From Escherichia coli (GTDB taxonomy: Bacteria; Pseudomonadota; Gammaproteobacteria; Enterobacterales; Enterobacteriaceae), in the NCBI RefSeq assembly GCF_016903815.1, contig NZ_CP069973.1: a DNA stretch of 64,000 nt; one strand, given 5' to 3'. The position numbers and the translations under genes were made by a program. How positions within the stretch are numbered: the first letter of the stretch is position 1; each line of letters starts with the position of its first letter. Under the pieces are notes generated by a model that was not told the DNA's origin, did not search any database, and saw nothing but the letters and a program-made list of their open reading frames with translations. Shown piece by piece: positions 3,193-28,586 of this stretch.

Positions 3193-4617
<1,425 letters not shown>

Positions 4618-25678: not shown

Positions 25679-26014
25679 TTAACTTTTGGTCATTTCACAA
25701 AGCGTATAATTTAATAAACGCCCTAAACCGCTGACGGTTTGTGATAACGCTTCTTCTACTGCACCCACCGAGCCATAAATCACCAACGCGCCGCTAAAAC
25801 GGTCGAGAAAACCGATATGCACATCGGCGGCTTTTAGTGCTAAATCACCGGCGATCATCGCCGTTTCGCCGGGAGTTAGCGTCATAATGCCGATTGCGCC
25901 CGCATCAGGAACGCCGATTTTCTTCGCCAGTTCCTCGCCGGGATGCGCGATGAGATGCGCCAGTGTGACCTGTTTACCGGGCACAAATTCCTGAATGATG
26001 CGTTCTTTATCCAT
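25679..26014 (-). CDS. eutS: Microcompartment shell protein EutS (111 aa), first gene of the eut operon
   Basis: ORF track 25679..26086; start trimmed to ATG 26012-26014 ([15 protein letters not shown]...). Confidence 0.88.
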
Positions 26015-26254
26015 GAGTCGCCGCCTGTGAAAAACTTTCGTGTATCGTGACAATTTTTCGTCAGAGTAAATAACAAAATTCGGCAAGCGCGTTTAAAAGG
26101 TGAGGTAGATCACTAAGAATGGAGAGATATTTACTGTTATGAATAAACTTTCATATGCGACGCATGAATATAAATAAAATAATATCGAGATATTTCATAT
26201 ACTGCTTTTTTTATTATTCGTAAACTCAGTAATAAGCTTTACTAATATATTTCA
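26015..26254 (-). promoter_or_regulatory. AT-rich upstream region of eutS, probable location of the main eut promoter and EutR-responsive control region
   Basis: 240-bp AT-rich non-coding stretch directly 5' of eutS on the minus strand; promoter elements not mapped by eye. Confidence 0.45.
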
Positions 26255-26287
26255 GGAAAACCGCTTACCCTGAATATTCAGGGTAAG
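26255..26287 (-). terminator. Putative rho-independent terminator of maeB (perfect 24-bp palindrome plus T-tract)
   Basis: cttaccctgaat/attcagggtaag perfect inverted repeat at 26264-26287, followed on the minus strand by CGGTTTTCC; about 20 nt after maeB stop. Confidence 0.65.
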
Positions 26288-26306
26288 CGTGAGAGTTAAG
26301 AATGAA

Positions 26307-28586
26307 TTACAGCGGTTGGGTTTGCGCTTCAACCACAGCCAGCGCCACCATGTTGACGATACGACGTACCGATGCGATCGGCGTTAACACGTGAACCGGT
26401 TTCGCCACCCCCATCAGCACCGGGCCGACAGTCACACCTTCCGAGCTGGAAACGCGCAATAAGTTGTAACTAATGCGGGCAGCTTCCATGTTCGGCATCA
26501 CCAGAATATTAGCGGAACCTTTCAAAGGGCTGTCCGGCATACGGTCGCTGCGAATCGCTTCCACCAGCGCTGCATCGCCGTGCATTTCACCATCAATCAT
26601 CAGTTCTGGTGCACGTTCCCTGACCAGTTCCAGCGCCTGACGCATTTTGCTCGAAGACGGGCAGTCAGAAGAACCAAAGTTGGAGTGCGACAATAGAGCA
26701 ACGCGCGGTTCAATACCGAAACGACGGACAGTTTCTGCCGCCATCAAGGTGATCTCCGCCAGCTCTTCTGCGTCTGGTTCGTCATTAACGTATGTATCGG
26801 CAATAAAGGTGTTACCACTCGGCAGCAGCAGCGCGTTCATGGCACCTGCGGTGTGAACGCCATCGCGATAACCAAAGACATTTTTCACCACGCTAAAATG
26901 TTCATGATAATCGCCCACCGTACCGCAGATCATTGCATCGGCTTCGCCACGCTGAACCATGATCGCGCCAATCACTGTCGGATTACTGATCAGCGCACGC
27001 TGCGCCTGCTCCTGAGTGACACCGCGACGCTTCATGATCTGGAAGTATTCAGTCCAGTACTCTTTAAAGCGCGGATCGGATTCGTTATTGACGATCTCAA
27101 AATCAACACCCGCTTTGATCTGCAAGCCCAGTTTCTGAATGCGCATTTCGATCACGTTCGGACGACCGATAAGGATCGGTTTCGCCAGCCCCAGCGTTAC
27201 CAGTTCCTGAGTGGCATGCAGAACGCGCGCCTCTTCACCTTCCGGCAGAACGACGCGCTTCGGCGCTTTGCGAGCCTGGGAAAAAATCGGCTTCATAAAC
27301 AGGTTGGTTTTGTAAACGAACTCAGTCAGCTTGTCGATGTAGACGTCGAAATCAGCAATCGGACGCGTCGCAACGCCCGACTCCATCGCTGCTTTCGCGA
27401 CCGCAGGAGCGATCTTAACGATCAAGCGCGGATCAAACGGTTTTGGAATGATGTATTCCGGACCAAAGCTCAGATCCTGATCGCCATAAGCTGAAGCCAC
27501 CACTTCACTCTGTTCCGCATGGGCCAGTTCTGCAATCGCGCGTACCGCCGCCAGTTTCATCTCTTCGTTGATGGCGGTTGCGCCAACGTCCAGCGCGCCA
27601 CGGAAGATGAACGGGAAGCAAAGAACGTTGTTCACCTGGTTCGGGTAGTCGGAACGGCCGGTACAGATGATGGCATCCGGACGCACTTCTTTCGCCAGCG
27701 GCGGCAGAATTTCCGGTTCCGGGTTCGCCAGCGCCAGGATCATTGGCGCACGGGCCATTTTCTTCACCATTTCCTGGGTCAGCACTTTCGGGCCGGAACA
27801 TCCCAGGAAAATATCCGCGCCTTCAATCACATCATCGAGGGTACGTTTGCCGTCATCCACCACCGCATATGCGGCTTTGGTTTCCGCCATGTTTGGTTCA
27901 CGGCCCTGATAGATAACGCCTTTTGAGTCGCAAACCACGATGTTATGTTTTTGCAGACCCAGCGCTACCAGCAGGTTCATACAGGCGATTGCTGCGGCAC
28001 CCGCGCCGGAAACCACCATCCGCACGTCAGAGATGTTTTTCTCCACCACGCGCAAACCGTTGAGGATGGCGGCAGTGCTGATGATTGCCGTGCCGTGCTG
28101 ATCGTCGTGGAATACCGGAATATTCATCCGCTCGCGCAGTTTCTGTTCAATATAGAAACATTCTGGCGCTTTAATGTCTTCGAGGTTGATGCCGCCGAAG
28201 GTCGGTTCAAGCGCGGCGACGACTTCAATAAATTTGTCCGGGTCGAGTTCATCAACTTCAATGTCAAATACATCAATCCCGGCGAATTTCTTAAACAGAA
28301 CGCCCTTGCCTTCCATCACCGGTTTGCCTGCCAGCGCGCCAATGTTGCCTAACCCCAGCACCGCCGTACCGTTAGAGATCACCGCTACCAGGTTACCGCG
28401 CGCGGTATATTTGTAGGCTTTTAACGGGTCTTTTTCGATTTCAAGACAAGGTGCGGCAACGCCTGGTGAGTAGGCCAGCGCCAGATCGCGCTGCGTTGCC
28501 AGAGGCTTGGTTGGAGAAACCTGGATTTTCCCTGGAACTGGAAATTCATGGAAATCAAGTGCACTTTGTTTTAACTGGTCATCCAT
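26307..28586 (-). CDS. maeB: NADP-dependent malic enzyme MaeB (759 aa; malic enzyme plus PTA-like domain)
   Basis: ORF track 26307..28586. Confidence 0.95.

Follow-up and report, generated by a model that had tools for sequence, protein, structure and literature searches.

The window analysed here is a 64-kb stretch of E. coli DNA (64,000 nucleotides) in which the spacer between maeB and eutS occupies positions 26015-26306 and both flanking genes lie on the minus strand. The list of open reading frames, together with the RefSeq annotation of identical or near-identical E. coli DNA, identifies maeB (26307-28586, minus; stop codon at 26307-26309) as the gene for the NADP-dependent malic enzyme, and the same list and RefSeq annotation identify eutS (25679-26014, minus) as the first gene of the ethanolamine-utilisation (eut) operon. 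Shortly past the maeB stop codon the spacer contains a palindrome, and the 451 bases around it are 100% identical to those of E. coli strain 7/2 and were found in 5423 of the 5426 complete E. coli genomes. The records that we inspected, K-12 MG1655 included, carry no annotated feature in the spacer; a sigma-70 promoter scan of the same region produced 0 matches, and an Rfam scan returned only sub-threshold chance matches, the best of them scoring 26 bits where the gathering score is 49. Two short open reading frames in the AT-rich segment of the spacer were rejected, a 15-codon frame on the minus strand (ATG at 26198) whose start codon is lost in other E. coli alleles, and a 12-codon frame on the plus strand for which other E. 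coli alleles also have no start codon.

The first-pass annotation of this DNA had pointed to a perfect, loop-less 24-bp palindrome a short distance past the maeB stop. We located the quoted 24-mer (cttaccctgaat/attcagggtaag) at 26264-26287, exactly where it had been placed, but the perfect palindrome is longer than described and measures 28 bp (26262-26289). Its two 14-nt arms CGCTTACCCTGAAT and ATTCAGGGTAAGCG meet without a gap and are 100% complementary, and 17 nt separate the maeB stop codon from its start. No other loop-less palindrome in the 64-kb window has arms of at least 9 nt, the runner-up having an arm of 8 nt, and the longest arm obtained in 100 Markov-1 simulated windows was 11 nt. 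A search of the window for a second copy with up to three mismatches found none, with 0 expected. In addition, the minus-strand RNA folds at -26 kcal/mol in a 76-nt context (z = -6.2), and 0 of 200 shuffled sequences did as well. Given the unique arm length, the simulations, the lack of a near-copy and the fold z-score, the palindrome is not a product of chance, and these results confirm it as a real element.

When transcribed as part of the maeB message, the palindrome yields a 12-bp stem with seven G-C pairs and a 4-nt AUAU loop, and the hairpin alone has a folding energy of about -20 kcal/mol. A terminator calls for a stable stem-loop with G+C in its stem, placed on the sense strand shortly past the gene, and maeB has one. 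Downstream of the stem, the sequence and the transcript data delimit a short U-containing tail, G-UUUU-CCU (26254-26261, minus), with its four U at 26257-26260. The annotation had spoken of a T-run on the minus strand after the palindrome; the four U are indeed present, but the term overstates a tract of 3-4 U that is preceded by one or two non-U bases. The tail also differs between strains, being GGUUUUCC in the window allele and GGUUUAGC (also written A/GGUUUAGC), GGUUUGGC or AGUUUAGC elsewhere in E. coli, and the window allele has one U more than the three found in the other E. coli alleles examined. With G-UUUU-CCUG (GUUUUCCU) it barely passes a simple terminator scan that requires 5 T in 8, while the K-12 allele (AGUUUAGC), the only other E. 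coli allele scanned, fails it. In MG1655 the stem core lies at 2576055-2576080 and the sense-strand tail reads A (coordinate ending in 54), G (53), U (52), U (51), U (50) and A (49); a substitution in K-12 opens the outermost pair of the stem. Tail scores computed with a TransTermHP-type formula, which serves as a relative measure only, ranged from -2.3 to -3.4 in the Escherichia alleles, about half of the -5.3 to -6.1 obtained for the canonical terminators of sister genera. A U run of 3-4 residues argues against a strong intrinsic terminator, and because the run is so short any intrinsic termination here is probably inefficient.

Next, we studied how the element varies within Escherichia. In an alignment of eight diverse E. 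coli alleles none of the 26 columns of the palindrome core was variable, while the flanks varied at a rate of 13% (3 columns of the 17 nt before the core and 18 of the 143 nt after it), which gives a probability of 0.026 for finding no change in 26 columns. The palindrome is present at one locus in 5409 of the 5426 complete E. coli genomes and is intact, with at least 28 of the 30 queried bases, in 5244 of these 5409. A repeat family would have many copies per genome, but the palindrome has a single one, since the two 'places' reported for it are one palindrome counted on both strands. Among the 17 E. coli genomes without it there may be deletions such as that of E. coli 19AR0656 (NZ_CM132277.1, locus L002 2230-3000), in which an IS1B is joined to the last maeB codons (…CAACCGC followed directly by GGTGATGCTGCC…) and the maeB stop, the hairpin and the entire spacer are gone, together with eutS and the 5' portion of eutP.

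A few divergent alleles carry changes inside the stem. Read on the maeB sense strand, the internal changes in a divergent Escherichia (L010) and in E. coli MSB1_4I replace C-G by U.G, U-A by U.G and A-U by G.U, and the pairing is kept. MSB1_4I also has one A-to-U change that does not keep it: the innermost pair is lost and the loop grows from 4 to 6 nt. Read on the other strand, the pairing-preserving changes become C.A mismatches. Across five distinct sequences 96.7% of the cells were paired in the sense direction vs 91.7% in the antisense direction. The asymmetry is suggestive of an RNA hairpin, although the covariation behind it is thin: the changes are one-sided G.U replacements, and no double compensatory change occurred among the five distinct sequences, a set too small to give the test power. 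In MSB1_4I (NZ_LR898874.1, locus L092 2940-6030) an insertion of ~1.7 kb lies between the maeB hairpin and eutS; it carries a family-4 glycosyltransferase gene convergent with maeB, and an IS1A is found between eutS and eutP. Despite this 1.7-kb insertion the hairpin, with its 6-nt loop and one G.U pair, stays beside maeB and not beside eutS.

Published transcript maps of K-12 were then compared with the position of the hairpin. In the SMRT-Cappable-seq data of Yan et al. (2018; PMC6131387, Supplementary Data 1), full-length transcripts that cover b2463 (maeB) only end at 2576049/2576050, a site typed there as 'novelTTS'. These ends fall 5-6 nt past the stem, equivalent to positions 26257-26258 of the window; the 3' ends thus lie in the U tract in vivo, as seen in K-12 and carried over to the strain of the window by position. 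In M9 the reverse-strand transcript 2576050-2578498 had 52 reads at the TSS, 11 at the TTS, 0 passing and 12 within 50 bp downstream, with a median read-through of 0. The second sheet, which is presumably the Rich condition given the two growth conditions of that paper, lists the reverse-strand transcripts 2576049-2578443 (TSS 62, TTS 37, passing 3, 2 within 50 bp downstream, median read-through of 135 nt) and 2576049-2578531 (TSS 62, TTS 21, passing 4, 7 within 50 bp downstream, median read-through of 86 nt). The few K-12 maeB transcripts that read through end in the equivalent of the AT-rich stretch 26120-26253, with median extensions of 86-135 nt. No maeB transcript covering eutS appears in the K-12 SMRT-Cappable-seq rows, and 0-4 of 52-62 reads pass through; the outcome that the first-pass annotation had named as contradicting a terminator, maeB transcripts running into eutS, was therefore not seen in untreated K-12. 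The hairpin marks the end of the maeB transcript in K-12, and this 3' end, being listed in a genome-wide K-12 dataset, is already known. The curated Term-seq 3' ends of Adams et al. (2021; PMC7815308) have no entry at 25757xx-25762xx, which could reflect thresholding and is uninformative for a modestly expressed gene; the TERMITe supplements likewise hold no entry for the maeB 3' end, and the palindrome string was not found in the literature searched.

The K-12 data also contain a Rho signal in this spacer. Adams et al. (2021; PMC7815308, Supplementary file 2) report a Rho termination region on the minus strand with its peak at MG1655 2575860, which maps to position 26069 of the window; the region is classed as 'orphan' and has a Rho score of 5.5 (p = 1.5e-13, 800-nt windows). 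Their read counts upstream and downstream are 161/21 without bicyclomycin (BCM) and 195/140 with it, so that downstream reads go from 0.13 to 0.72 of the upstream count when Rho is inhibited. These published K-12 data place BCM-sensitive read-through beyond a U-poor stem-loop, as measured in 800-nt windows that cannot separate read-through from maeB from new initiation; the BCM-induced signal over eutS/eutP could stem from starts inside the AT-rich spacer and not from maeB. Position 26069 falls within the conserved eut promoter/leader block described below, some 190 nt beyond the hairpin. Just upstream of the peak, the sense RNA has a C-rich and G-poor patch (26090-26125, minus; 13-16 C vs 3-6 G per 50 nt) that we regard as a candidate rut-like site, and the ~130 nt that come right after the stem are AU-rich and C-poor and do not readily look like a rut site. 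The sense RNA has another C-rich, G-poor patch (26290-26320; 18 C vs 5 G in 50 nt), which spans the maeB stop and lies just upstream of the hairpin.

To place the element in a wider context, we compared the sequence past each maeB stop codon at 80 Enterobacteriaceae maeB loci. Citrobacter, the Klebsiella oxytoca group, Yokenella, Pseudocitrobacter and Salmonella have a different, canonical terminator 14-20 nt past the maeB stop, composed of GGCGCGGG-loop-CCCGCGCC followed by TTTTTATTT (7 T in 8), and the Citrobacter version passes the terminator scan. Where eutS follows in these sister genera the spacer is ~160 bp long vs 292 bp in E. coli, and in the alignment their T-run directly adjoins a block of ~105 bp that is conserved with E. 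coli. In Salmonella enterica eutS lies 2.1 kb from maeB in subsp. diarizonae (L036) and is not within 2.5 kb of it in subsp. arizonae (L060), so extra DNA separates the two genes in these Salmonella.

The conserved block, which we designate the eutS promoter/leader block (26015-26119, minus), is shared by Escherichia, Citrobacter, Klebsiella, Yokenella and Pseudocitrobacter, and none of its 105 columns varies among the eight E. coli alleles. Inside it, ~92 bp upstream of the eutS ATG, lies GTGAGGTAGATCAC (GTGA-N6-TCAC; 26100-26113), which is almost unchanged across the genera from Escherichia to Klebsiella and Yokenella, matches the CRP consensus and looks like a CRP site in the eut P1 promoter region. 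The hairpin is separated from this block by an AT-rich, polymorphic filler (26120-26253), and both the filler and the palindrome are found in Escherichia only, being absent from Citrobacter, Klebsiella and Yokenella. The annotation had taken the AT-rich region for the control region of eutS, but this stretch is missing from the genera that keep the conserved promoter block. Salmonella and E. coli are known to have an EutR-dependent P1 promoter (review: PMC5821096), and from the pattern of sequence conservation it is plausible that the block at 26015-26119, not the AT-rich stretch, is its seat. The AT-rich filler exists as deeply diverged haplotypes: in 4385 genomes the Escherichia-specific segment of 187 nt around the palindrome is only 90-95% identical to the window allele, which is itself a minority allele with about 345 genomes. 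A mobile-element origin of these 187 nt was considered and rejected, as no real homology to plasmids or phages was found; the 'plasmid' matches were mislabelled chromosomes and the phage matches were 31-nt chance hits.

Hairpins of one type or another are a constant feature downstream of maeB. Every Enterobacteriaceae maeB examined has a stable one in the first 90 nt past the stop; Enterobacter, Leclercia and Raoultella have REP-like palindrome pairs after maeB, and CCCTCTCCC/GGGAGAGGG repeat pairs follow the gene in other genera. The maeB 3' flank thus appears, from these comparisons, to be a hot spot of hairpin-element turnover. When the Enterobacter and Leclercia loci L039, L042, L055 and L064 (at 3415-3475) were compared with 26262-26289 of the window, the outer arms of the hairpin (CGCTTACCC…GGGTAAGCG) aligned with the inner part of a tail-to-tail REP-like pair, CGCTTACCCGACCTAC…GTAGGCCGGATAAGCG. 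This alignment hints that the Escherichia hairpin may be a shortened relic of a REP pair, a lead that concerns its origin only. The Enterobacter REP-type 15-mer occurs once per fetched locus.

Taken together, we think it probable, if by no means certain, that the palindrome encodes the 3' stem-loop of the maeB mRNA and combines weak intrinsic termination with Rho-dependent termination further on, after which the RNA is trimmed to the stem. From the hairpin, the K-12 ends and the low read-through, all of which are observed, we infer how these ends arise. RNA polymerase, having moved 17 nt past the maeB stop, would transcribe the 28-nt inverted repeat, and the RNA would fold into the stable 12-bp hairpin. 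Mature maeB transcripts would end 5-6 nt beyond it, in the short U run, as the K-12 ends do. Rho would halt escaping polymerases over the following ~100-200 nt of untranslated spacer, and 3'-5' exonucleases would trim the longer RNAs to the hairpin, which would protect the message. The net effect would be a monocistronic maeB mRNA and a eut operon shielded from maeB transcription. The identification of the palindrome as the maeB terminator in the first-pass annotation thus holds as far as the transcript ends and the terminators at this position in sister genera go, but has to be tempered by the short, variable U-tract and by the Rho region downstream. Similarly, the proposed insulation of eut from maeB agrees with the near absence of read-through in K-12, but Rho may contribute as much to it as the hairpin does; the insulation probably depends on Rho too. 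Proteomic measurements in which MaeB abundance was unchanged under eut-inducing conditions (PMC11334477) are consistent with separate maeB and eut transcription units.

The closest competitor to weak termination backed by Rho is that the hairpin and the short U run stop nearly all maeB transcription by themselves, independently of Rho, and that the Rho signal of the spacer comes from other transcripts, for example from spurious starts in AT-rich DNA. Such an arrangement is possible, and a stem of about -20 kcal/mol, the fact that 80-90% of the full-length reads stop either 5-6 nt past it or within 50 nt, the success of the window allele in the terminator scan and the correspondence in position to the canonical terminators of Citrobacter, Klebsiella and Salmonella would all agree with it. 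It sits poorly with a tail of only 3-4 U set behind one or two non-U bases, which varies freely among strains and in K-12 fails the scan, with ragged M9 ends within 50 nt (12) that match in number those at the site itself (11), and with downstream coverage that climbs in BCM to 72% of the upstream level. Because of the short and variable U run, the ragged M9 ends within 50 nt and the BCM-sensitive signal we argue against a strong intrinsic terminator, and we regard full self-sufficiency as doubtful.

Two further explanations leave transcription termination aside. The perfect two-fold symmetry, which includes the centre, and the near invariance in E. coli would suit a site acting in the DNA, where the dyad would bind a dimeric regulator or form a cruciform and affect eut or maeB; the first-pass annotation had also raised a dimeric protein site. 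An operator would be expected to be conserved with the promoter it serves and/or to recur elsewhere, but this palindrome occupies one locus per genome, lies outside the cross-genus promoter block, ~250 bp before the eutS start, and is missing from genera that keep that block. Where eutS has been moved away, the element remains with maeB, and the Escherichia variants alter its centre and make the DNA asymmetric, with C.A on one strand, while keeping the pairing of the sense RNA. Its TGAAT/ATTCA sequence has, presumably, the wrong spacing for ArgR or Cra boxes, a comparison of consensus sequences that we offer as a lead. We therefore set the protein-site suggestion aside and regard a DNA-level role as extremely unlikely. 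The remaining explanation, which we hold to be very unlikely, is that the palindrome is a functionless relic, for instance of a REP/BIME pair or of an insertion event that brought in the AT-rich segment. The arms CGCTTACCC / GGGTAAGCG do align with the REP-like pair of Enterobacter/Leclercia, and the surrounding segment is lineage-specific; against a relic, more than 5200 genomes share the fixed core next to polymorphic bases, and transcripts end there. An origin as a relic would not exclude a present function.

The contrast with the sister genera looks like a case of interconversion between intrinsic and Rho-dependent termination, by analogy with what has been proposed for other E. coli mRNAs. 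A more far-reaching scenario, which we consider unlikely, is that in Escherichia the ancestral canonical terminator was replaced by a U-poor and possibly REP-derived hairpin plus ~130 nt of AT-rich spacer, with the insulation of eut shifted to a largely Rho-dependent process that ends inside the eut promoter region. If this were so, maeB read-through could feed eut expression when Rho activity drops. Hairpins at gene ends are textbook matter, and as one of them the maeB hairpin is ordinary and matters little. Its modest value is to show, in a clean natural case, a terminator caught between two states; this bears on the interconversion of intrinsic and Rho-dependent termination and on the degree to which transcription from a constitutive neighbour is kept out of the inducible eut operon.

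Finally, we compared the element with the closest known systems. Like REP/BIME elements, the maeB palindrome is extragenic, lies at a gene end and has similar arm ends, and REP-like pairs stand at the same place in Enterobacter, Leclercia and Raoultella; unlike them, it is single-copy in E. coli genomes. It also shows no match to the E. coli REP consensus, and membership in REP or another repeat family was rejected because the palindrome is single-copy and lacks this match. With Rho-independent terminators it shares a stem-loop on the sense strand shortly past the stop, followed by U, and 3' ends in the U run. It differs from them in its tail, where 3-4 U stand in place of 7-8, one or two non-U bases precede them and the sequence changes from strain to strain; no A-tract lies upstream, and a Rho-sensitive region follows. 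It works like a terminator or 3' stem-loop of a gene end, but with a marginal U-tract and a questionable independence from Rho it is only a putative member of the intrinsic terminators in the strict sense. A further counterpart is the class described by Dar and Sorek (2018; PMC6061677), in which Rho-dependent E. coli mRNAs end at stable stem-loops without U-rich tails, Rho terminating downstream and PNPase or RNase II trimming the RNA to the stem. These authors propose that U-poor hairpins may combine weak intrinsic termination with Rho and that evolution readily interconverts the two modes through the U content. The first ~130 nt after the maeB stem are, unlike the downstream regions of that class, AU-rich and not C-rich, and the Rho evidence has a resolution of 800 nt. 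The maeB hairpin resembles those stem-loops in being stable and U-poor, in lying at the steady-state 3' end of its message and in being followed by a BCM-sensitive signal and a patch with C in excess over G. The maeB-eutS spacer thus fits the description of Dar and Sorek (2018), and by analogy the maeB message would be trimmed by exonucleases to its hairpin in the same way.
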